From a virus (lineage: Duplodnaviria > Caudoviricetes), in IMG/VR virus record IMGVR_UViG_3300037067_019204, positions 1 through 64,000 of that record: 64,000 nucleotides of DNA. The stretch is one strand, 5' to 3'. The notes under the pieces were generated by a model, which was not told the origin of the DNA, made no database searches, and saw nothing but the letters and a program-made list of their open reading frames with translations. Numbering within the stretch: the stretch's first letter is position 1; each line of letters begins with the position of its first letter. Positions 12,383-41,056 of this stretch are shown here, one piece after another. Both the position numbers and the translations under genes were made by a program.

Positions 12383-12485
12383 CTTATGTATCATATTAAG
12401 CGTAGTATCAGTGAGTGGGGTTAGCGAAGACCAATTGGGCTTCATTTTTGCTAACTCCCTCACCATTTTGCTGTGAGAACAGCAA
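12383..12485 (-). ncRNA. Predicted tracrRNA
   Basis: 5' hairpin TTGCTG-TTCTCA-CAGCAA whose loop pairs with repeat 3' end TGAGAG; long GTGAG..CTCAC stem; anti-repeat TAC-TACGCTT...ATAAG. Confidence 0.7.
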
Positions 12486-13775
12486 TATATCATTACTGAT
12501 ATAAGTATTTTCATTAATTTTTTCTTCTTCCTCCTCCAATTTACCTTTTTTTATAAATAGCTTACTATTAGCGATATTAATAGAAGCATTATAATCAGCA
12601 TTAGATTCATATCCACATTTTGTACATTTAAAATGAGCTTGATCTTTTCTATTATCTTTATCAATACTACCACATTTTGAACATTTTTGACTTGTATATG
12701 CAGGATTTATGTATTTTACTATTACTCCTATTTCTTTAGCTTTATACTCAATCATTTGCTGGAGTTGATAATAAGACCAATATGCTGTAAGAAATGCATT
12801 TTTCTTTACTTCACTTGTCAAAGCTTCCAGATGAATAGTTCCTGCATTATTTTTCATACAAAAATCTATTATTTGTTTACTCATTGTATGATTATATGTT
12901 TTTACAAAATTAGATTCTTTTTCCATCAGAGAATCTAAACAATCAAATTTTCTTTTTCTACCATGACCACCTTTTGTAGTAGTTTTTCGTTGTAATCGTC
13001 TACGTCTATTTTTTATTTGTGTTCTGAATTTTTGTATTTCAATAGAATCACCTATTGCTTTTCTATCCAATTCATTCTTTAGTCCACAATATGCCGGTAT
13101 TTTCCAACCCAAATCAATTCCACAAATTATATCCTTATCTAAAGATTTTAGATTAGGAGAAAAATTGTAACATAAATATAAATACCAGAACTTATCTTTT
13201 TTAATTATTCTTGAATCACTTAAACCATAATCATTGTTTAATATTTTATCAACAATATTTTTAACTGATTTATCTTTTTCTATTCCAGTAAATCCAAAAA
13301 TATAACCTTTTTTTCTTAATTCACTAGGATAAAAAACATATTCCCCATCTTGAACTTGAATTTCACTTTCTTTGGATTTAACCAAAATACTTAAATCTTT
13401 AAAATTAGGATAATCTATCTTACCAGTATTGTATTCAAATAATTCATTTTTAAACTTAGTTTCAACTTCCGTTTGAATCCAACTTGCCTGAGTTTCAGTC
13501 AAATATTTAGAAGATTCTCTAGTGGCCGTTAAAAAAGTTGAATATGTATGTTTTTTTCCTTTTTTATTAACTCTTTTTCCAATTGTTAAATCAATAGCAT
13601 GAGGATTTGTAGTATTTAAATAATTAAATAAGATACTTCTTTTAAGTGTATCATGACGTATATTTCTTGCTTCATAAGACATTTTTGTTAATAAATTATA
13701 AAGATTATTTCTTTTTTCTTGATCTTTTTCTATCAAAAATAATTTTATTTTACAAGTTTTAACTAAATTTCCCAT
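12408..13775 (-). CDS. cas12f: Type V-F effector Cas12f (TnpB-derived RuvC nuclease)
   Basis: RuvC-I GIDLG, GGHGRKRK, RuvC-II IHLE, CSKC/CTKC zinc finger, RuvC-III NADYNA; 455 aa; adjacent array. Confidence 0.88.
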   Translation of the reverse strand: MGNLVKTCKIKLFLIEKDQEKRNNLYNLLTKMSYEARNIRHDTLKRSILFNYLNTTNPHAIDLTIGKRVNKKGKKHTYSTFLTATRESSKYLTETQASWIQTEVETKFKNELFEYNTGKIDYPNFKDLSILVKSKESEIQVQDGEYVFYPSELRKKGYIFGFTGIEKDKSVKNIVDKILNNDYGLSDSRIIKKDKFWYLYLCYNFSPNLKSLDKDIICGIDLGWKIPAYCGLKNELDRKAIGDSIEIQKFRTQIKNRRRRLQRKTTTKGGHGRKRKFDCLDSLMEKESNFVKTYNHTMSKQIIDFCMKNNAGTIHLEALTSEVKKNAFLTAYWSYYQLQQMIEYKAKEIGVIVKYINPAYTSQKCSKCGSIDKDNRKDQAHFKCTKCGYESNADYNASINIANSKLFIKKGKLEEEEEKINENTYISNDILLFSQQNGEGVSKNEAQLVFANPTH

Positions 13776-27991: not shown

Positions 27992-28062
27992 AACTTATTG
28001 TTTATCATGGTATTTAATGCACCAAAATCTCCATGAATATCACCACAAACTATAGTTTTCAT
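27988..28062 (-). pseudogene. Orphan 24-codon N-terminal fragment of the metallophosphoesterase
   Basis: MKTIVCGDIHGDFGALNTMINNKL* shares GDIHGDFGALN with 26554-27231. Confidence 0.8.
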
Positions 28063-28988
28063 TCTTCCTCGATTATTTCTCCATTTTTATCTAATAAACA
28101 ACAATAAAATTTATCATGCTCATCTTTTGATCTTTTTTTAAGTGTATCAAAAATTAATTTTGGATCTTTTTTGTTAAATGAAACAATAGAAAATCCATTT
28201 TTTGCCAAATCTTCCTCAATAAATTGAGAGAGTCCTCCAAAAACACCAAGATAACCGTGGCTGGAGTAACTATTTTCTTTTTTTGCTACTAATACAATAC
28301 ATTTTTTGTCTAATTCTCTTACTTTATCTTGTATAATATGAAATAAATCTGTTTTTTCATAATATTCCATAAAATTACCTCAAACTTTTCTTCCCACAGA
28401 CTTTAAAATTGAAAGACTTTCCATATTTGTTATAATATGCGTTCAAATATCCTCCTAAAGTCCCTTTTGCATTCTCAAATTCTTCTTTTTTTTGTGCCAA
28501 TTCATCTTTATCCACAGAATCAGGATTGTCAAGATATTTATGGAATATAATATAATATGTTTTTCGTGCTTTATTCAAATCAGGCAAAAAATTACAGATA
28601 GTTTTATTGTCTTTTTTCATTTCTGCATCAACTTCTGCTTTTGTGTGTAATTGGACAAAAGTACAACTGGCAAACATAAAAGCACATAAGATAAAAATCA
28701 TTTTTTTCATATTATTTCTCCCATTCATTAAACTTCAAATTCTTTTACTATTTTTCCATTTCTTTCTTTTTTTATATGTTTAGTTATGTCAAAAATAACT
28801 TTTTCAGCTTCTTTGTAGGAACTAAAAATTGCTTTTCTTTGCATATATGGATAATGTTTTTGTAAAACCCAAAAGTATCTCCAACAAAACAATCCCCTCC
28901 ATTGTGCATGATAAAGCCCATTCTTATATATAATTCTCATTTTGAATTTATCTTTTTTATTCATACCTAACCTTTTATATAAATAAAT

Positions 28989-29071
28989 TAGGTCGAGAGG
29001 GAGTTGAACCCTCAATCCATAATGGCATCAGGGCTTAAACCTGATGTGTATGCCAGTTCCACCATCGACCC
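28989..29071 (-). tRNA. tRNA-Leu(TAA)
   Basis: TCAGG-TT-TAA-GC-CCTGA, long V arm. Confidence 0.88.
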
Positions 29072-29085
29072 ATATTTTAAAACTG

Positions 29086-29159
29086 AGCACGTTATCCGAT
29101 TTGAACGGATGATATTTCTTCATTTGCAGTGAAGTGCCTTACCACTCAGCCAAACGTGC
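29086..29159 (-). tRNA. tRNA-Cys(GCA)
   Basis: CTTCA-CT-GCA-AA-TGAAG, U73. Confidence 0.85.
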
Positions 29160-29793
29160 TTTAATAATAATTTAAAAATCTCCAGAGGCTCCACCACCCC
29201 CAAAATCTCCACCACCACCACTAAAATCATCACTTGAACTGGAACTTGAGCCAAAATCAGAATCAAAACTTGAACTAGAACTTGAATCAGAATCCAATAA
29301 AGAACCAATTACTGAACCTATAATAACCGCATCAAGAATATCAATACTACCATCTTCTTTACGCCTAATAGAAGATTCAACAGCACGTCTTTTTTCTTGA
29401 GAAAGTTTTTTAAGTTTCTTTTCAAAATCAGCAATCTTTCGCCCCTGAATTAATTTTTTCATATTATTTTCTCCAATTAATTTAATTAAAAGCTTACTTT
29501 ATTTATATAATTTGCCCCTAAAAAATTATAGGTGTATAACGACCCAAAATAATATACTACTTAGTCTTTATACAATCTATAGTTTGTAAAACATGTGCAA
29601 GATTTAAAGCTGATTGTGTGTATTTGAGTGCATCGTCTGCTTTAATATCTTTAGATATTTTTTCTGTTAATAATATTATCGATTTTTCAATACTTTCTAT
29701 TTTCATTATGGGTTTTATCTCCTTAATTTTTATTTATATTTTTTGGGTCATTATATTCAATTGCTTATTTTATTGCCTTTTTTATAACTTGTA

Positions 29794-30006
29794 TTAAATT
29801 ATTTTAATATCTCTCCAACAAGAAAGTGCATCTATCATCATACAAAGAGCATCTTCTACATTATCACCTTGAGTAAGCAACCCTTTATTTTTTGGGCTTG
29901 TAACAGTATATCCAACTTCTGGTTTTTTACACTGATGAAATAAAAATTCATAAGTTTCATTATTATCTAATGTAAGTACAATAGAATTTATGCCTACTTT
30001 TTTCAT
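29794..30006 (-). CDS. HicB-like protein
   Basis: GYTVTSP...GLLTQGDNVEDAL. Confidence 0.65.
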   Translation of the reverse strand: MKKVGINSIVLTLDNNETYEFLFHQCKKPEVGYTVTSPKNKGLLTQGDNVEDALCMMIDALSCWRDIKII

Positions 30007-30283
30007 TATTTATTTTTCTCCTTTTCCCGTTCTTCATATTTTCTTACACGTTCCCAAAACTCTTTCTTGATATAATCAATAATTTTATAAAAATCTATAT
30101 TTGGGAATTTATCTTTATTATCTTCTATAATAATTGCAGCAAGAGCTAATATAAGAACAATAAAACTAAAAATTGGAATTATTGATAGCCATTTAAAATG
30201 GACTAACTCAATAATTAAAGATATGATATATAAAATCAAAAACGCAACGTGATATTTAGTATTTTTCATATTAATCTCCTTAT

Positions 30284-30357
30284 CTGACCTGAAACGATTC
30301 GAACGCTTGATTATCTGATCCAAATTCAGATCCCTTAAACCACTTGGGTACAGGTCA
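30284..30357 (-). tRNA. tRNA-Gln(TTG)
   Basis: TCTGA-AT-TTG-GA-TCAGA; U1-A72. Confidence 0.85.
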
Positions 30358-30510
30358 ATAAAAATAAAAGACAGAGACAGTATGCTCTCTGTCTTTTCAA
30401 TATATAAACAATAAAAAGATTATTCAATTTTGTCAATTAAAAAATTGCTAATTTTTTAACAATTTTTCCGTTTTCAAAGATCTAATTAAGATAAAAATAT
30501 CTTAATTTTT

Positions 30511-30598
30511 CGGAGATTGAGAGATTCGAACTCCCATCGGTTTTTACACCTACATCTGCTTTCAAGGCAGGTCGCTTGCGCCGTTAGCGTAAATCTCC
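30511..30598 (-). tRNA. tRNA-Ser(TGA)
   Basis: CTGC-CT-TGA-AA-GCAG, long V arm, G73. Confidence 0.85.
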
Positions 30599-30603
30599 TT
30601 TTG

Positions 30604-30690
30604 CGGTTACGATTGGATTCGAACCAATGGGACTTTTACATCCACTTGTTTAGCAGACAAGTGCCTTAAGCCAAACTCGGCCACATAACC
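30604..30690 (-). tRNA. tRNA-Ser(GCT)
   Basis: CTTGT-CT-GCT-AA-ACAAG, long V arm. Confidence 0.9.
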
Positions 30691-30692
30691 AT

Positions 30693-30765
30693 TAGGGCTA
30701 CTCGGAATTGAACCGGGATTCCGAGAGTGAAATTCTCGTGAACTAAACCATTGTTCGATAGCCCC
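30693..30765 (-). tRNA. tRNA-Glu(TTC)
   Basis: CGAGA-AT-TTC-AC-TCTCG. Confidence 0.85.
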
Positions 30766-30770
30766 AAGAA

Positions 30771-30840
30771 TGAGTCAGGAGAAGATTCGAACTTCTTAGT
30801 ATCGACTCTACGGATACCTTTACCACTATTTCTCTGACTC
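30771..30840 (-). ncRNA. Aberrant tRNA-like RNA (no D stem, 9-nt anticodon loop)
   Basis: GAGTCAG/CTGACTC acceptor, AGAAG-TTCGAAT-CTTCT T arm, GTATC-CGTAGAGTC-GATAC. Confidence 0.55.
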
Positions 30841-30843
30841 CTG

Positions 30844-30916
30844 TGGAAGCGACGAGATTCGAACTCGCTACTTTCTGGTTGCAGGCCAGACGCTCTCCCA
30901 ACTGAGCTACGCCCCC
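30844..30916 (-). tRNA. tRNA-Ala(TGC), C33
   Basis: TCTGG-CC-TGC-AA-CCAGA; G3-U70. Confidence 0.88.
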
Positions 30917-30918
30917 AT

Positions 30919-30991
30919 TGGCTCCACTAGGGTTTGAACCTAGGCAATTCTCCTTGTAAGGAAGACGCTCTACCATTTGAGCTATGGAGCT
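30919..30991 (-). tRNA. tRNA-Val(TAC)
   Basis: TCTTC-CT-TAC-AA-GGAGA. Confidence 0.85.
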
Positions 30992-31070
30992 TTAAAAGAG
31001 CTACTCTTTTCTTTAAATAGGCTGTTGCTCGTCTTTCCTATACATGATTTAAAGCTAATGCATACTTATG

Positions 31071-31144
31071 TGGGGCGAAAGGAACTTGAATCCTTAACTT
31101 ACTGATTAAAATTCAGTTACTCTAGCCAATTGAGTTACCGCCCC
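31071..31144 (-). tRNA. tRNA-Lys(TTT)
   Basis: ACTGA-AT-TTT-AA-TCAGT. Confidence 0.88.
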
Positions 31145-31149
31145 TTATT

Positions 31150-31222
31150 TGAGTTAGGAAGGAGTCGGACCCTCATCTGATGGGTTACAGCCATGCGTGT
31201 TACCGTTAAACACTACTAACTC
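31150..31222 (-). tRNA. tRNA-Tyr(GTA) lacking the long variable arm
   Basis: ATGG-CT-GTA-AC-CCAT; GAGTTAG/CTAACTC. Confidence 0.75.
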
Positions 31223-31230
31223 ATAATAAT

Positions 31231-31266
31231 AAAAAAGGCATGGAACTTTTGCTCCCATGCCTTTTT
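31231..31266 (-). terminator. Intrinsic terminator (attenuator) directly upstream of tRNA array
   Basis: AGGCATGGGAGC-AAAA-GTTCCATGCC-TTTTTT. Confidence 0.8.
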
Positions 31267-31297
31267 ACTTTATATTAACTTTTTGCCCAAAAGTAAA

Positions 31298-31435
31298 TTA
31301 CATGGGAACACCCCTTTGTGATTCTAATGCTACTGTAATGGCATAAGAATAACTTTGAGGCATAAAACGTCCCTCACCTCTTATGGAACAGAGGACTTGT
31401 TTCAAACTAAATATGTTGTTCTTCCTTTTTATCAT
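31298..31435 (-). CDS. Putative leader peptide (45 aa, or 21 aa from internal ATG at 31363)
   Basis: MIKRKNNIFSLKQVLCSIRGEGRFMPQSYSYAITVALESQRGVPM*; GAGGTGAGGGA before the second Met; 3' end complementary to terminator arm. Confidence 0.6.
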   Translation of the reverse strand: MIKRKNNIFSLKQVLCSIRGEGRFMPQSYSYAITVALESQRGVPM

Positions 31436-31441
31436 ATAAAC

Positions 31442-31470
31442 AAACTACTATATAACTATGTTTTTGTCAA
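31442..31470 (-). promoter_or_regulatory. Sigma70-type promoter for leader and tRNA array
   Basis: TTGACA-N17-TAGTTT, 6 nt before the leader ATG. Confidence 0.6.
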
Positions 31471-32866
31471 CCCTTTTATTTTATTTATCGGTACAAATAA
31501 TAAGAAACTTTAGCGTTTTTTATAGGAATATTAAAAATTTTTTTAAAAATTAAATTTCCTCTAACCATTTATCAAGAGATTTTACATCAGAAAGCTTAAA
31601 ACAGCTAACCCATATTAAATTATGAAGTATTATATATTCTACTAATATTGAATATACAAACTGCGCCATTTTATCTCTAAATGCTTTATTATAATCTTTT
31701 TCAAATAGTTTCTTTTTCACAACCGCCCGTATTGGATGGGATTTATAGACTGACATAGAAAACTGTGTTTTATTCAAAAAATAACCTAAAAAATCCTTTT
31801 TTAAATTCAATTTATTGCATAAATCAAAAATTTCATTAATTGAAACAAAATTTTTCTCTATCTTATTTTTAGATGCATTACATATTTCATATATACGTTT
31901 TTTATTTATAACTCTATAAAGATTCATTTTTTGAAATATATTTATTGTTTTATAATATGCTTCTAAAAAGATACCAAAATTTGAAATGTAATTTTTAAGA
32001 TTATCTAAATGAGTCTTTTGTAAAATTTTCATATCTTCTTTATTAAAAGTGGATATGTAACCCTCTTCGACCAAAAACAACCAACTGATTGAACGTTGTT
32101 TTATTACTTTTTTATTATCAATTTTCATATATCATATGCTTTAGTAAGAATAACGAAACCTATTACACACAAAATAACATAACCAAATACTACTAAAGCA
32201 CAAAGCCAATCCCATGCTGGCCAAAAATTTTCAAGTGTGTAGCACCCAAAGAATATTGAGAGCATTTCATGAGCCTCACCCTGTTCTTGTGCTGTTATCT
32301 GTTGTATTGCAGTTTGATACGCAAAAGACGATTCATCCATTTCACGAATAATTTCAAGCCTATCTCTAAGAGATTTTAAAGCTTTAAGATTAAAATCAAA
32401 ACTAGAATTAGGAATTTTAAAAATAATAGCATCATAATCAGAATGCTTCATGTTTTCTAATGCAGAAACAAATTGATCTACATATTCCTGTTTAGCCTTA
32501 ATAGTTGAACTTTTATCTGCTAAATCCCAATAACCCCGTATGTTGTTTTGATATGAATAATAATTAGAGACACAACCTTTGATATGAGCACCACAAAACA
32601 CACATGCAGATATAACAATAATCCAACCAACTCTTATTAACTTAATATCATTCATTTTTTTACCTCTTTTTAAATAAATAATTTTATTTACCATGAACAG
32701 ATTTAAAACTAGTAGGAACTATAATCGATGCCTTATACATTCGTTTTGCTTGTTTTCCACACTTGCATTCTACAATTTCAGGAAAATTTTCCTGTTCATA
32801 TGGTTTTTTATACTCAATTATATTACCACACTCACACTTATAATCTGCTATCATTTATATCTCCTT

Positions 32867-34390
32867 TTATGCAATATCAATCCTTATATCATGCTTTTTA
32901 CAATATTTGTTGATTATGTGCCGATGATCTTTATTCTCAATACTTGTGTTTCTCTTTGCTCGTAATTGAATTACACGATTTTTTCTAATTTCCATATTGT
33001 ATAGTAATTCCCCACATTTTTTATCATATATGCCCAATAGTATGCATTCTTTAGTTCTATATCTATCTGAATAAGAAGCAATACAATTATGCATCATACT
33101 ACCCCAACTAGCTAAATCAGAGGGCTGGTGTGGAACAGTAAACTTTAATTCATCTATATCTTCTTCATATTTATGGAGATCTTCTATCTCATATGGTTTA
33201 TTCCTATCTTTCATCGTTATATAATTCTGTATTTTTGAAAAAGTATCATGCAAATGTTGTGGAGTAAAACATTTTTTTTCTTGTTTTAGTATTTCCATAT
33301 TTTTAAATTCATTATCTTTTTTTATTGTATGATACATCCTAAGTGTATCATAATTATGAGGATAATTCAAAAATGAATTAGATTTTTGTGTATATCCATA
33401 AGATATATCAGGAGACAATGATTCTCGTTTATCATCATCTCTCATTATAAAATCAGCTAATTTATTTTCTGATAATTCTTTTTTAACATCTTTAGCAAAC
33501 ACTTCAAAATGTTCTGGTAATAAAAATAAATTATTAACATGCTCATTATACTCATTACGAGCATTGTAATAATTAAGAATATGTTTTAAAACAGAGGTTT
33601 TTATATCAAGATTATCAAATTGTTTACAAATTATAGGGAGACGATAAAAATCAATTTTTTTGATTGGAGTATCTAATAAATTTCTAACAATAGATTTTTT
33701 GTATGGTAATTCCATAAAGTTAATTAAATCTTTTACAGTAGAAATTTCCATATCTTTAAATATTTCTCTGTGCTTGTCATATTTTAATGAATACAAAAAA
33801 TCAGAACTAAGTTTAAGAATGGGAAAATGATCATAAACCATATAAGCAAAAAATAAATTAACAGGTAATTCTTCCCCAAAAAGATATTCTGATATAGTTT
33901 TATAAATTCTATAGTATTGTTGTTCAAATAATTTAGCATTAGCACCTAATTTATATTTTGTGGCTTTGTATATAAAAGAAATAGGATTATCTACATCAAG
34001 ATAGTCCCAAAATTTAAAAGTTTCACTATCAGAAGATATAAAAGATTCAGGATCAAAAGAAAGAACAGAATTTTTTTCTTTTTTTTCTAGTTCATCTCCT
34101 TTAAATTTAAAGGAACTATTTTTATGAATAATAGAAGCAGATCTTTTATTATTTTCTTCATGTAATTCTAAAATTACTCTTTCAATTTGATCTGAAGCAG
34201 ATATATAAGATGTTGTATTACAATTAGAACAGGAATATAGTTTACTATTAGGAACTAATACTTCTGGAATAAAAAAAGTTTTTTGGCATTCAGTACAATA
34301 TACTGTACTTCCCAAAGAGCTACGTTTATTTCTATTTAAAATAAATAGTGGGATAACTTCTTTATTAACTGGAATAGATTCTATAAGCAT
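32867..34390 (-). CDS. PcfJ-domain protein
   Basis: VPHQPSDLASWGSMMHNCIASY...MEIR...IQLRAKRN. Confidence 0.75.
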   Translation of the reverse strand: MLIESIPVNKEVIPLFILNRNKRSSLGSTVYCTECQKTFFIPEVLVPNSKLYSCSNCNTTSYISASDQIERVILELHEENNKRSASIIHKNSSFKFKGDELEKKEKNSVLSFDPESFISSDSETFKFWDYLDVDNPISFIYKATKYKLGANAKLFEQQYYRIYKTISEYLFGEELPVNLFFAYMVYDHFPILKLSSDFLYSLKYDKHREIFKDMEISTVKDLINFMELPYKKSIVRNLLDTPIKKIDFYRLPIICKQFDNLDIKTSVLKHILNYYNARNEYNEHVNNLFLLPEHFEVFAKDVKKELSENKLADFIMRDDDKRESLSPDISYGYTQKSNSFLNYPHNYDTLRMYHTIKKDNEFKNMEILKQEKKCFTPQHLHDTFSKIQNYITMKDRNKPYEIEDLHKYEEDIDELKFTVPHQPSDLASWGSMMHNCIASYSDRYRTKECILLGIYDKKCGELLYNMEIRKNRVIQLRAKRNTSIENKDHRHIINKYCKKHDIRIDIA

Positions 34391-34943: not shown

Positions 34944-36560
34944 TTATAGTTTTCCCATACTAAATTGACTAATTATTTGTGGTGCGGCACTATCAAATCC
35001 TACTATATCCAATGAATTTGGATCTTGAGGATCTGCTATAGAAAATTCAGACCCAACCATTCCAACAACAATCATTTTAGCATCTTTAATCCTCTGGTTT
35101 CTATACTCATGCAAGGCTTGCATAGGATGCATCTTCCCAAACCAAGTTTCATTATCTGTATATGTAACAAATACATCAAAATCAAGTTTCCTATCTTTTG
35201 CCCATATCATTGGAACAGAGCAATCAGTTCCAGCAAAAGGAAGATTTCTCATTTTTTGAAGAGTTTGTCCCAATGTCATATCTGGAGTTATGTCCAAATT
35301 AACAAAATTTGTAGAAAAACCCATTACTTCATAATTTTGTTCTTTTCTTGCTGTAACCATAGCCATACAAGCACTAGCTTCACGACAAGTTAATATCCCC
35401 TGTGCTCCAGAAATATAACTATTTGTCATTGAACCAGATACATCTAGCCCAAGAAGATAACGTTTTCCTGTAGATTCAACATTTTTAAAACTTAAATAAA
35501 ACATTTCTTCAAGAGCATCCACAATTTTTTGAACAGGAACCCAAGAAAGTTTTCCTTTAATTCCATGACCCATTGAATATGTCTTCATGGCAATCAAGAT
35601 ATTCAAAGGATGCATTCTACTTTTTTCTACATGAGAAAGATCAGTTAATTTTTTTGTAACTAAATTAATCTCATCAAACTTACCTTTTGAAAGAATTTCT
35701 AAAGAGCTTAGTTTTCCGAGATTACGAACCAAAGCTCCTAAAGGCAAATCATCCAAAGCAGAATTCCATACTTTTGCACGATTCTTTAACTCTGTTGGCC
35801 ATGCTTCATGAGGAATCTTATATTCTTTTATAAGCTTGCAAGCATCTTTTTCAGAAGCGTTTTTAAGTTCTTCTACAGCTTTCAAAAGATTAAATCCTTC
35901 AGAAATCTCACCTTTAACTGCATATTTAAACAATGAATTATGCTTATCAGACACAGGTTTTACGTGCGCAGAACGAAGCACATCACGATGTGTCCATTGG
36001 TTATTTGAACCTTCTACAGTACGACCTTGATACTTGATCATTTGATATTCAAGTTTTTCTGGGGACATGCTATACCAATTAGCTATAGCACTACGCACTG
36101 AACGACCCCAACTTCTCATTGAATCCAAGTAATGCACAAACATAAACAAGTGTGTTCCTATACGGCATACTTTAGGAAGTGCTTGAACAATTTCTTTTTT
36201 AACATCAAAATCTTTGCATTGAGTAAACAATACTGCTAACAAATAGATTGCTTGATCATTTTTAGGTGCACGGCCCTCATCAGAAATTTTAACTATTGTT
36301 TCAAGAACACGCTTTGGGTTTTCATTAATACAAGCAATACAGTTTTCTATATTAGCTTTAGTCAAATCATGTTCTGAAACATAATATGTTCCACCCTCTG
36401 AAGAAAGGATAAGAAATCTTTCCAATCTTTTCCATTTGTCAATAATGAAGGTATAACCACCTGCATTATTCATAGCCATTTCTTTTTCACGACCCGGAAT
36501 GGGCTTATATTGAGGTGTTCTCTTGTTATTAATTTGATGTTTTGTGTAATTGATAGCCAT
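34944..36560 (-). CDS. rsr: Ro60/Rsr RNA-binding protein (TROVE + vWA)
   Basis: NNAGGY...LERFLILSSEGGTYY; WTHRDVLRSAH; ALVRNLG; MIDAS DVSGS; TDNET; GFDS. Confidence 0.95.
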   Translation of the reverse strand: MAINYTKHQINNKRTPQYKPIPGREKEMAMNNAGGYTFIIDKWKRLERFLILSSEGGTYYVSEHDLTKANIENCIACINENPKRVLETIVKISDEGRAPKNDQAIYLLAVLFTQCKDFDVKKEIVQALPKVCRIGTHLFMFVHYLDSMRSWGRSVRSAIANWYSMSPEKLEYQMIKYQGRTVEGSNNQWTHRDVLRSAHVKPVSDKHNSLFKYAVKGEISEGFNLLKAVEELKNASEKDACKLIKEYKIPHEAWPTELKNRAKVWNSALDDLPLGALVRNLGKLSSLEILSKGKFDEINLVTKKLTDLSHVEKSRMHPLNILIAMKTYSMGHGIKGKLSWVPVQKIVDALEEMFYLSFKNVESTGKRYLLGLDVSGSMTNSYISGAQGILTCREASACMAMVTARKEQNYEVMGFSTNFVNLDITPDMTLGQTLQKMRNLPFAGTDCSVPMIWAKDRKLDFDVFVTYTDNETWFGKMHPMQALHEYRNQRIKDAKMIVVGMVGSEFSIADPQDPNSLDIVGFDSAAPQIISQFSMGKL

Positions 36561-36655: not shown

Positions 36656-36782
36656 TGGCCAAAGAGTTGGACTCGAACCAACGACCCACAGTTTCCAATG
36701 ATAACCCTATTCTCCGTGCATTTCTGCCAAGTTGTTGAAAAGGGAAATACAACTGCTGCTCTACCAACTGAGCTATCTTTGA
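36656..36782 (-). ncRNA. Y-RNA-like gene 4: tRNA body with Ro-binding helix in place of anticodon loop
   Basis: Canonical acceptor, D and T arms; insert ...CTTGGCA-GAAA-TGCACGGA-GAATAGGG-TTATC...; acceptor followed by CCA. Confidence 0.8.
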
Positions 36783-36790
36783 CATGCATA

Positions 36791-36870
36791 TTTGGTAAAT
36801 TTTTTTTGATCAGAAAGTTCTTTTCAGAACAACCAATTTCATGTTGATAACTGATCAAATCCGTACCAAA
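36791..36870 (-). ncRNA. Y-RNA-like gene 3 (compact)
   Basis: TTTGGTACGGA-TTTGATCAG-TTATC...CTGATCAAA...TTTACCAAA. Confidence 0.75.
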
Positions 36871-36873
36871 ATT

Positions 36874-36997
36874 TTCCGTGGGTTGGACTTGAACCAACGA
36901 CCCCTTCCTTACAATGGATAATCCTCTTTCATTCGTACATTACTGTCAAGTGGTGAAAAAGGAACTTTAAGTGCTCTACCAATTGAGCTACCACGGA
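36874..36997 (-). ncRNA. Y-RNA-like gene 2: tRNA body with Ro-binding helix in place of anticodon loop
   Basis: TCCGTGG/CCACGGA acceptor, canonical D and T arms; insert ...CTTGACA-GTAA-TGTACGAA-TGAAAGAGGA-TTATC... Confidence 0.8.
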
Positions 36998-39973: not shown

Positions 39974-41056
39974 TTAAGCCCTATACATTGTTAAATGTAT
40001 AATTTTTCCATTAAATTCTACAGCCTCTCCCATTAATCGTTTAGTCTTATTTCTATCTTCATTTTCAGGAAGAATTTGCCTAATTTCAATAACTTTGTAT
40101 TCTTTATTATCAAATAAAGTTTTTTCTTCAAAAGTTGTATTTAATTTCTTTCCAAGGAGGGCTTTTACTTTCTCTGCTTTAAACTCAAAAAGATTAGTAT
40201 CATCTTTTTTCAGATAATTACTACCTTCTTTTTCAACAACATCATTTTTTACAGCTTTCCAAGAATCTGGAAGATCATATACATCTAAACCCTTTATCTC
40301 ATTTTCATAAAGAAAAATAGCACCAATTTGGTTTTCAATAGGTGGTATTTTTTTAAGCATTTTTTGAATCATATCTGACATTTCATCAAGTGTTCCAACA
40401 AGATCATCACAATACAATGATCTTACATTAACATCTCCAAGAGTATCATTTCCTGAAATATCTAAATGAGTATGAGATGCTGAATATATTTCAGCAGGAA
40501 GTACCATACTAGTAGTTGTTATTTCAGGATCATAGAATCTACGAGCTGGATTTCTAAGTATATTTTTGTCAGTGCTTTTTAAGTTTGATGTGGTTGCATA
40601 TTGAGTATTAAAGTTACTAACAGTACTCCAAGTGCGAGACTGACTGGAAAGATCTACATCATAAGGTGCATATCCTCCAAATTTCATCTCAGCTCCCTTT
40701 GAAATACCTTTTGTTTGGTGGATACAACGAACAGAAACTTTTTGACCTCTCCCTGCTCCTATAATGTATCCATGAATTGCAGCTCTTTCTTGGGTTTTAC
40801 CTTTAAAGATTTCACCACGACTAATAAACAGTGGTTTATCTTCATTATTTTTTACATACACAGAATCAACAGCCCCTGTGTCTTCTACTTTTACATCTTG
40901 AGCTTCTGCAAAAGTAATGTAATCTCTTTTCAAGTCACTGTCTCTTTTAACAGGAACAATAACTGAAAGACTTCCTTCATCCAATCTCCAAGCCTCATCG
41001 AGCTGGAATCCATTGGTCTCCTCTACGATAGACTTGATAAAATTTTGTGCTGACAT
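39974..41056 (-). CDS. ARPP-1 (DUF6569)-like protein
   Basis: VKNNEDKPLFISRGEIFKGKTQER...VSVRCI; C-terminal GEAVEFNGKIIHL. Confidence 0.6.
   Translation of the reverse strand: MSAQNFIKSIVEETNGFQLDEAWRLDEGSLSVIVPVKRDSDLKRDYITFAEAQDVKVEDTGAVDSVYVKNNEDKPLFISRGEIFKGKTQERAAIHGYIIGAGRGQKVSVRCIHQTKGISKGAEMKFGGYAPYDVDLSSQSRTWSTVSNFNTQYATTSNLKSTDKNILRNPARRFYDPEITTTSMVLPAEIYSASHTHLDISGNDTLGDVNVRSLYCDDLVGTLDEMSDMIQKMLKKIPPIENQIGAIFLYENEIKGLDVYDLPDSWKAVKNDVVEKEGSNYLKKDDTNLFEFKAEKVKALLGKKLNTTFEEKTLFDNKEYKVIEIRQILPENEDRNKTKRLMGEAVEFNGKIIHLTMYRA

Follow-up and report, generated by a model that had tools for sequence, protein, structure and literature searches.

The DNA analysed here (the window) covers the first 64 kb of the 161-kb IMG/VR virus record IMGVR_UViG_3300037067_019204, a phage of the Caudoviricetes whose record is estimated to be approximately 65% complete. 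The GC content of the window is approximately 29%, and no match to the phage was found in INPHARED when searched by DNA and by protein. The 20 tRNA genes that ARAGORN identified in this phage are all encoded on the minus strand, within the stretch from 2.7 to 31.2 kb. The subject of this analysis is the leader that precedes seven of these genes, in which a promoter (P1), a short open reading frame (ORF) and an intrinsic terminator (T1) follow one another, and which is considered here as a possible ribosome-mediated attenuator of the transcription of a phage tRNA operon. Coordinates of leader, promoter and terminator are all given on the minus strand. The features first needed for the argument are as follows.

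31442-31470, minus strand: promoter P1, read from the sequence, with TTGACA at 31470-31465, a spacer of 17 nucleotides (nt) and TAGTTT at 31447-31442.
31298-31435, minus strand: leader ORF of 45 codons, with its ATG at 31435, codons to 31301 and TAA at 31300-31298.
31300-31310, minus strand: segment 1, TGTTCCCATGT, the putative 5' strand of an antiterminator, made up of the last codons of the ORF and the first base of its stop codon.
31250-31260, minus strand: segment 2, GCATGGGAGCA, which is both the 3' strand of the putative antiterminator and part of the 5' arm of T1.
31231-31266, minus strand: intrinsic terminator T1, with a stem at 31266-31232 of 14 pairs, a 7-nt loop and a U-run (U6) at 31236-31231.
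30511-31223, minus strand: tRNA array, Tyr(GUA), Lys(UUU), Val(UAC), Ala(UGC), Glu(UUC), Ser(GCU) and Ser(UGA), identified with ARAGORN and Rfam.

The order of the tRNA genes (Tyr, Lys, Val, Ala, Glu, Ser, Ser) agrees with that reported in an initial annotation of this DNA, which had also proposed a translation-sensing attenuator in front of them. The gene for tRNA-Tyr starts at 31223, just 7 nt beyond the U-run of T1. As this leaves no room for a promoter between the two, transcription of the array must pass T1. Directly after tRNA-Ser(UGA), an AU-rich hairpin of 10 base pairs (bp) was observed (30484-30507, minus strand), whose place is taken by another hairpin, of 8 bp, in the related phage L002 described below (2133-2160) and which is absent from a further phage, L008; at the end of the block of seven tRNAs it may serve in processing or in weak termination.

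A protein of 192 amino acids encoded upstream of the leader was found to have six relatives among 5.8 billion proteins, and one of these, with 64% identity, was the only relative to give DNA with a tRNA array (L002). The sequence L006 is from the same JGI contig as L002, L003 is an identical ENA contig, and the third phage, L008, spans only the distal part of the tRNA array. Protein searches matched the further relatives P0002, P0004, P0005, P0011 and P0012, and the more distant relatives P0006, P0007 and P0008 were found to carry other genes, with no tRNA array, at the site of the leader. Searches of IMG/VR with the neighbouring protein, exact leader and promoter patterns, the terminator pattern and the family alignment returned only a 64-kb fragment without tRNAs, while a scan of JGI metagenomes with an alignment of the leader peptide returned only the contig already known. 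A pattern search of genome contigs gave one chance match, inside an Akkermansia coding region, and no paralogue of the leader was found elsewhere in the phage genome.

Comparison of the window with L002 showed that the whole unit is kept in the latter, namely the -35 box, the position of the -10 box, the spacing to the ATG, the ORF, its UAA, a hairpin between segments 1 and 2 (P3, described below), T1 and a tRNA-Tyr gene that begins 6-7 nt beyond the terminator. The flanking genes of the two phages are approximately 75-80% identical at the DNA level, with the 3' half of the leader at 85-95% and its 5' half at approximately 66%. The first gene of the array itself has been exchanged, the window encoding a tRNA-Tyr(GUA) of 75 nt with no long variable arm (31149-31223) and L002 a tRNA-Tyr of 90 nt (1394-1483) with little sequence similarity to it, and the order of Lys and Val is swapped between the two. 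The leader has thus been kept while its cargo changed, and is better conserved than that cargo.

The TTGACA-N17-TAGTTT promoter of the initial annotation is present as described. Its -10 box matches at three of six positions, and promoter P1 was for this reason not listed by the promoter scan. The aligned L002 promoter consists of TTGACA and TATAGT separated by 17 nt. Counting from the -10 box, the first ATG of the ORF begins at the 7th nt in both phages, which coincides with the predicted start of transcription, and the ORF is accordingly predicted to be leaderless. An internal promoter in the leader (TTTACT-17-TATAAA) was considered and rejected, as it is destroyed by a 9-nt deletion in L002.

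The short ORF reported initially was likewise recovered, and in L002 it has the same length of 45 codons in the same frame, with no insertion or deletion and with its UAA directly after segment 1, which is itself unchanged there. Between the two phages the ORF has undergone 10 synonymous and 13 non-synonymous substitutions. The resulting ratio of non-synonymous to synonymous change (pN/pS) is 0.34 in the frame of the ORF, compared to 0.78 and 1.66 in the other two frames and 0.47 in the neighbouring gene, and the synonymous excess was significant both for the whole ORF (P 0.012) and for its first 24 codons alone (P 0.025). The first 23 nt of the leader are A-rich and locally unpaired in the RNAalifold consensus, where five long-range pairs joining columns 3-7 with the U-run were taken as spurious. 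Judged from these features of the sequence, translation of the leader ORF is plausible.

The region was found to hold 9 terminator sites, against 1.5 expected. At T1, segment 1 can pair with segment 2 in a helix of 11 bp, consisting of 9 Watson-Crick pairs and 2 G-U pairs, and since segment 2 also belongs to the 5' arm of T1, helix and terminator exclude each other. This pairing, the core of the initial annotation, was borne out and exceeds chance in the window, the duplex having an energy of -18.8 kcal/mol compared to -10.4 +/- 2.0 kcal/mol when the 120 nt upstream were dinucleotide-shuffled (P 0.002). It also forms part of the minimum-free-energy fold of the window's leader (z -3.5). T1 has the strongest upstream complement of the 19 terminator-like hairpins that the 161-kb genome contains, a ranking obtained in a separate mononucleotide-shuffle test of the trimmed arm (T1 z -3.5, median -0.4).

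These figures bear on one alternative, that an ordinary small gene is here followed by an ordinary terminator, the complementarity being coincidental or the end of the ORF having been duplicated from the 3' arm of T1. An ORF of 45 codons is indeed only the 6th longest of those that follow 30 promoter-like sites in the genome, and in L002 the complementarity is not significant taken alone (P 0.12). Such an arrangement is nevertheless improbable in view of the strength of the pairing in the window and its place at the top of the 19 terminators; moreover, a compensatory change has maintained hairpin P3, although its loop has lost 9 nt, and the tRNA array would still depend on T1 being passed.

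Folding of the leader in its two states gave energies of -22.3 kcal/mol for the antiterminator and -18.5 kcal/mol for the terminator in the window, and of -18.4 and -20.2 kcal/mol, respectively, in L002. When growing naked transcripts were folded, the antiterminator was adopted in both phages until the full terminator had emerged, after which the window kept the antiterminator and L002 switched to the terminator. Blocking segment 1, the stop codon and a further 10 nt in silico, as the footprint of a ribosome would, caused the terminator to form. The folds thus suggest a three-segment design in which read-through would be the default of the naked RNA. As naked RNA favours the antiterminator in these folds, formation of T1 would require segment 1 to be masked, for example by a ribosome terminating on the ORF.

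The anatomy and logic of the attenuator proposed initially, with a terminator to be passed and an exclusive partner for it supplied by the end of an ORF, have therefore held, while the choice of codons to match the downstream tRNAs, treated below, has not. The reading given most weight here, at a probability of roughly 45%, is that the leader of this phage tRNA operon is a ribosome-mediated transcription attenuator. According to this reading, the host-type promoter P1 would start the RNA at the AUG of the 45-codon ORF, and segment 1 could pair with segment 2 in the 5' arm of T1, with hairpin P3 bringing both together. On naked RNA, to go by the folding, the antiterminator would form before the 3' arm of T1 had been transcribed, resulting in read-through into the genes from tRNA-Tyr to tRNA-Ser. 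If a ribosome kept up with the polymerase as far as the last codons or the UAA, it would cover segment 1 together with the 5' arm of P3, leaving segment 2 free, so that T1 would form and transcription would end 7 nt before tRNA-Tyr. A slow or absent ribosome would instead leave the antiterminator in place and the tRNA array would be transcribed. The unit would in this way report the speed of translation over 45 mixed codons, and slow decoding would raise the synthesis of phage tRNAs as a feedback on supply. A more specific form of the attenuator, which is somewhat doubtful, is a leaderless timer run by a pioneer ribosome, in which the first ribosome would engage the AUG at the 5' end of the RNA as this emerges and compete in speed with the polymerase over the 45 codons, the terminator forming only upon timely arrival at the stop codon and the feedback raising tRNA supply when host decoding falls. 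If it operates, such a timer would respond whether the loss of decoding stems from starvation, from host shut-off, from mismatched codon usage or from defences that cleave tRNAs.

Several observations weigh against attenuation by a ribosome. The comparison of leaders comprises two sequences, the window and L002, and its statistics rest on approximately 23 substitutions. In L002 the complementarity of segments 1 and 2 is weaker (8+2 bp, P 0.12), and the minimum-free-energy fold of the full-length leader is the terminator state together with P3. The initial annotation had named covariation of the pairing between ORF and terminator in related phages as a check on its proposal; no covariation was seen, the helix being invariant apart from one G-U pair that has become a C/U mismatch in L002. 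The G-to-C change that breaks this pair, along with a second change, adds two G-C pairs to the terminator. An anti-antiterminator is also absent, the best upstream partner of segment 1 being no better than in shuffles (P 0.29 and 0.20), and without tight coupling of transcription and translation the unit would be constitutively open.

Initiation of translation presents a further difficulty. No Shine-Dalgarno sequence precedes the first AUG, and translation would depend on leaderless initiation. An internal in-frame AUG could serve as an alternative start, for an ORF of 21 codons, yet it is buried in hairpin P2, and the well-spaced GAGG before it is GAGA in L002 and therefore not conserved. As this change is compensated within hairpin P1, selection on the stretch appears to act on its pairing in a stem and not on ribosome binding. 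A search of 1.84 billion representative proteins gave no homologue of the leader peptide, which also argues against translation. From the internal ATG to the stop codon lies the most conserved part of the leader, with 63 of 66 nt (95%) identical in L002, and at a divergence of 24% the probability of three or fewer changes in 66 nt is 2e-5. In these last 21 codons third positions have changed in 2 of 21 cases compared to 32% in the neighbouring gene (P 0.017), and they are more conserved than coding alone explains.

Using RNAalifold on the two leaders, five hairpins (P0, P1, P2, P3 and T1) were identified, and the consensus fold was far better than that of column-shuffled alignments for the part covered by the ORF (z -3.7) and for the whole leader (z -7.6). 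The hairpins upstream of T1 and the internal start are located as follows.

31395-31412, minus strand: hairpin P0, within the first half of the ORF, in which two pairs differ from L002 in both of their bases (RNAalifold).
31372-31394, minus strand: hairpin P1, which holds the purine-rich, Shine-Dalgarno-like AGAGGTGAGG and whose closing pair C-G has become U-A in L002.
31310-31361, minus strand: hairpin P2, in the second half of the ORF.
31361-31363, minus strand: internal in-frame ATG, the alternative start of a 21-codon ORF, paired at the base of P2.
31264-31297, minus strand: hairpin P3 (TTTACTTT/AAAGTAAA), between segments 1 and 2.

Comparison of hairpin P3 by hand showed one compensatory change from U-A to A-U in L002, where the loop is reduced from 18 to 9 nt and the stem is kept. 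P3 can form in either state of the leader, and in the models it would place segments 1 and 2 next to each other. The compensatory changes in the leader hairpins alter amino acids, and a chain of five hairpins with such changes fits an element acting as RNA only equally well, so that both of these observations likewise count against the attenuator.

An element of this kind would be a conditional terminator in which a factor bound by the leader, be it a protein, a small ligand or an RNA, perhaps a tRNA, selects between the pairing of segments 1 and 2 and the formation of T1, the open frame being incidental or secondary. The strength of the consensus fold speaks for it, as do the compensatory changes in P0 (two), P1 (one) and P3 (one), the conservation of the 66-nt stretch that begins at the internal ATG and ends with the stop codon, third codon positions included, and the coincidence of rare C-ending codons with stems. 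It is unlikely all the same, as frame, length and stop position of the ORF are conserved and the synonymous bias is found in the frame of the ORF alone. No ligand pocket or T-box-like bulge was seen, the antiterminator being one continuous helix. A scan of 28000-33000 against Rfam at an expectation value (E) of up to 1, T-box and all riboswitches included, gave no family match for the leader; the only match was a sub-threshold one to STnc40 over the terminator (26.5 bits compared to a gathering score of 45 bits, E 0.19). Were the leader such an element instead, it would represent a new structured cis-regulatory RNA.

The T-box (RF00230) is a known system that resembles the phage leader, being a leader of approximately 200 nt in low-GC bacteria whose terminator/antiterminator switch links the status of tRNA to the transcription of genes related to translation. 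It differs in binding uncharged tRNA through a specifier loop and a UGGN bulge with no need of an ORF, while the phage leader has an unbulged antiterminator and a conserved ORF that ends at the switch. Identity with a T-box was rejected since RF00230 had no match in the scan, and the scan likewise led to the rejection of a tRNA-like or Y-RNA identity of the leader.

The leader could also be read as a stand-alone small RNA of approximately 205 nt, or as a dual-function RNA that encodes a 45-amino-acid peptide, reaching from promoter P1 to T1; the tRNAs would then be supplied by constitutive leakage through T1, and the helix of segments 1 and 2 would belong to the fold or mark where the RNA is processed. 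The layout of a promoter, a structured 205-nt RNA and a strong terminator suits this explanation, as does the fold of L002, in which the terminator state with P3 is that of minimum free energy, and the pN/pS of 0.34 suggests some selection on the sequence of the peptide. The phage furthermore has other small RNAs, probably tRNA-like Y RNAs, beside a gene for Ro60. A small RNA is nonetheless distinctly unlikely: the array has no promoter of its own, so that none of the seven tRNAs could be made unless transcription passed T1, segment 1 was found to have no complementary target elsewhere in the phage genome, and the peptide lacks homologues among the representative proteins searched. A fixed fold would also leave the second, equally stable and mutually exclusive pairing unexplained.

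The Ro60/TROVE-vWA protein (Pfam E 1e-65, 3e-35) is encoded at 34944-36560 on the minus strand. Two matches of approximately 124 nt to the tRNA model adjoin it (36658-36997, minus strand), and these are the probable tRNA-like Y RNAs.

With regard to the codon content of the leader ORF, the counts given in the initial annotation were correct, its 45 codons including 32 distinct triplets for 17 amino acids, and all nine of the codons that it named (TAT, GTA, GCA, GAA, AGT, TCA, CAA, TTA and ATT) are present. A diversity of 32 is above the 95th percentile (30) for gene stretches, and it results largely from rare C-ending codons located in RNA stems. The proposal that codons had been chosen for the downstream tRNAs did not hold by count, as 9 of the last 21 codons, compared to 33% genome-wide, can be read by the eight downstream tRNAs (P 0.24), and over the whole ORF the figure is 15 of 45. 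When each downstream tRNA was instead scored for the presence of a cognate codon, seven of the eight had one in the last 21 codons, random gene stretches having a mean of 4.1 (P 0.023, nominally significant), and all eight had one within the 45 codons (P 0.066). It is thus weakly supported that the ORF samples one codon of each downstream tRNA. A codon order mirroring that of the array was rejected using a longest-common-subsequence test (P 0.12 and 0.44). Tandem runs of a codon are absent from the ORF, which shows only Ser-Tyr-Ser-Tyr. The speculation that the leader is a pan-codon sensor of tRNA damage was not supported.

A second unit of promoter and terminator was identified within the array, in front of tRNA-Gln.

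30366-30440, minus strand: second unit, with TTGACA-17-TATTGT followed within approximately 10 nt by a hairpin of 12 pairs (30397-30366) and a U-run (L002, 2150-2275; L008, 445-568).

The hairpin of this unit ends 8 nt before tRNA-Gln, and neither an ORF nor an alternative pairing was found for it. Its promoter region is identical to that of L002 at 76 of 80 nt and shows one A-to-G change in L008, with the tRNAs differing among the phages. A terminator without an ORF in front of tRNA-Gln implies that some terminators in the array are passed by other means, which again tells against the attenuator and calls for caution with every reading considered here; not every terminator in the array is governed by translation.

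The two units share the layout of promoter, terminator and tRNA, which recalls the PR'-tR' region of phage lambda (6S RNA, Q), where a constitutive promoter is followed approximately 200 nt on by a strong terminator with the downstream block behind it. Factor-dependent antitermination of this type would require promoter P1 to be constitutive and T1 to be the default stop, with a phage protein modifying the polymerase at the promoter region so that T1, and the terminator of the second unit, are ignored at a set time in infection. Besides the shared layout, the unusual conservation of the promoter regions, that of tRNA-Gln in particular, fits this mode of control, and the leader of approximately 205 nt resembles the 194-nt lambda 6S leader. 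In lambda a DNA-binding protein modifies the polymerase and there is neither an alternative RNA pairing nor an ORF. The antiterminator within the ORF and the coding-type substitutions of the phage leader would go unexplained by such control. The Q-family antiterminator domains PF06530 and PF03589 were not found in the 161 kb, which is weak evidence given a record that is approximately 65% complete. Control of the Q type is on balance very improbable.

Returning to the ribosome-mediated attenuator, the same logic has been shown by experiment for the bmrBCD operon of B. subtilis, where the antiterminator is prevented when bmrB is translated efficiently and can form when translation is slow (PMC4191407). 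In both cases the leader ORF overlaps the structures of terminator and antiterminator; in bmrBCD slowed translation of any cause leads to read-through, so that general speed is sensed rather than one amino acid, and rare leader codons modulate the set point (PMC4191407). The two differ in that the terminator of bmrB lies inside the ORF, while that of the phage lies 33-67 nt past the stop codon, and in that an anti-anti-terminator is predicted in bmrB and none was found in the phage leader. Furthermore, bmrBCD regulates a bacterial drug exporter, whereas the phage unit precedes tRNAs and has an apparently leaderless start. There is no sequence similarity between the two leaders.

The trpL, hisL, leuL, thrL and ilv attenuators of enterobacterial amino-acid operons have the same layout of promoter, short ORF, alternative hairpins and terminator, and in these too a ribosome at the stop codon masks the 5' strand of the antiterminator. 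In the phage the U-run ends approximately 62-67 nt past the stop codon, a distance of the same order as in trpL. Attenuators of the trpL type nevertheless have four segments, including a 1:2 hairpin that terminates an untranslated leader, while the phage leader has three, with read-through as the probable default; they also carry runs of codons for the amino acid sensed, which the phage ORF does not. No Rfam leader family matches the phage leader.

Attenuation by a leader ORF is known for bacterial operons, and no description of attenuation before phage tRNA genes was found in full-text literature searches, which were mostly aimed at phage tRNA genes. Why phages carry tRNAs has long been debated, with codon compensation and escape from tRNA-targeting defences among the explanations proposed (PMC10264068). 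If the leader is a ribosome-mediated attenuator, the phage would measure decoding capacity and adjust its tRNA supply, and the debate over tRNA carriage would become a testable regulatory question. The reach of leader-peptide attenuation, known for amino-acid and resistance genes, would in that case widen to include tRNA genes and viruses, and the leader would provide a compact and portable sensor of translation speed.

The intergenic DNA upstream of promoter P1 was also compared between the window and L002.

31471-31549, minus strand: A/T-rich intergenic region before the -35 box, a possible UP element or operator.

Windows across this region (31551-31472) were found to be identical to L002 at 32-34 of 40 nt, compared to approximately 75-80% in the flanking genes, and the approximately 80 nt upstream of the -35 box of the leader have an overall identity of approximately 83% (66/80). 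No terminator was observed between the upstream gene and promoter P1, and transcripts reading in from that gene would therefore enter the leader too.

Among the other genes of the window, a TnpB/Cas12f-like protein (12408-13775, minus strand) is encoded between tRNA-Pro and tRNA-Thr and contains a Cas12f1-like TNB domain (E 6e-25) and OrfB_IS605, with no close relative identified in 185,579 species genomes. The co-oriented block that contains the gene for Ro60 was found to encode in addition a PcfJ-like protein (32867-34390, minus strand; E 1e-14) and an ARPP-1 domain protein (39974-41056, minus strand; E 6e-26).

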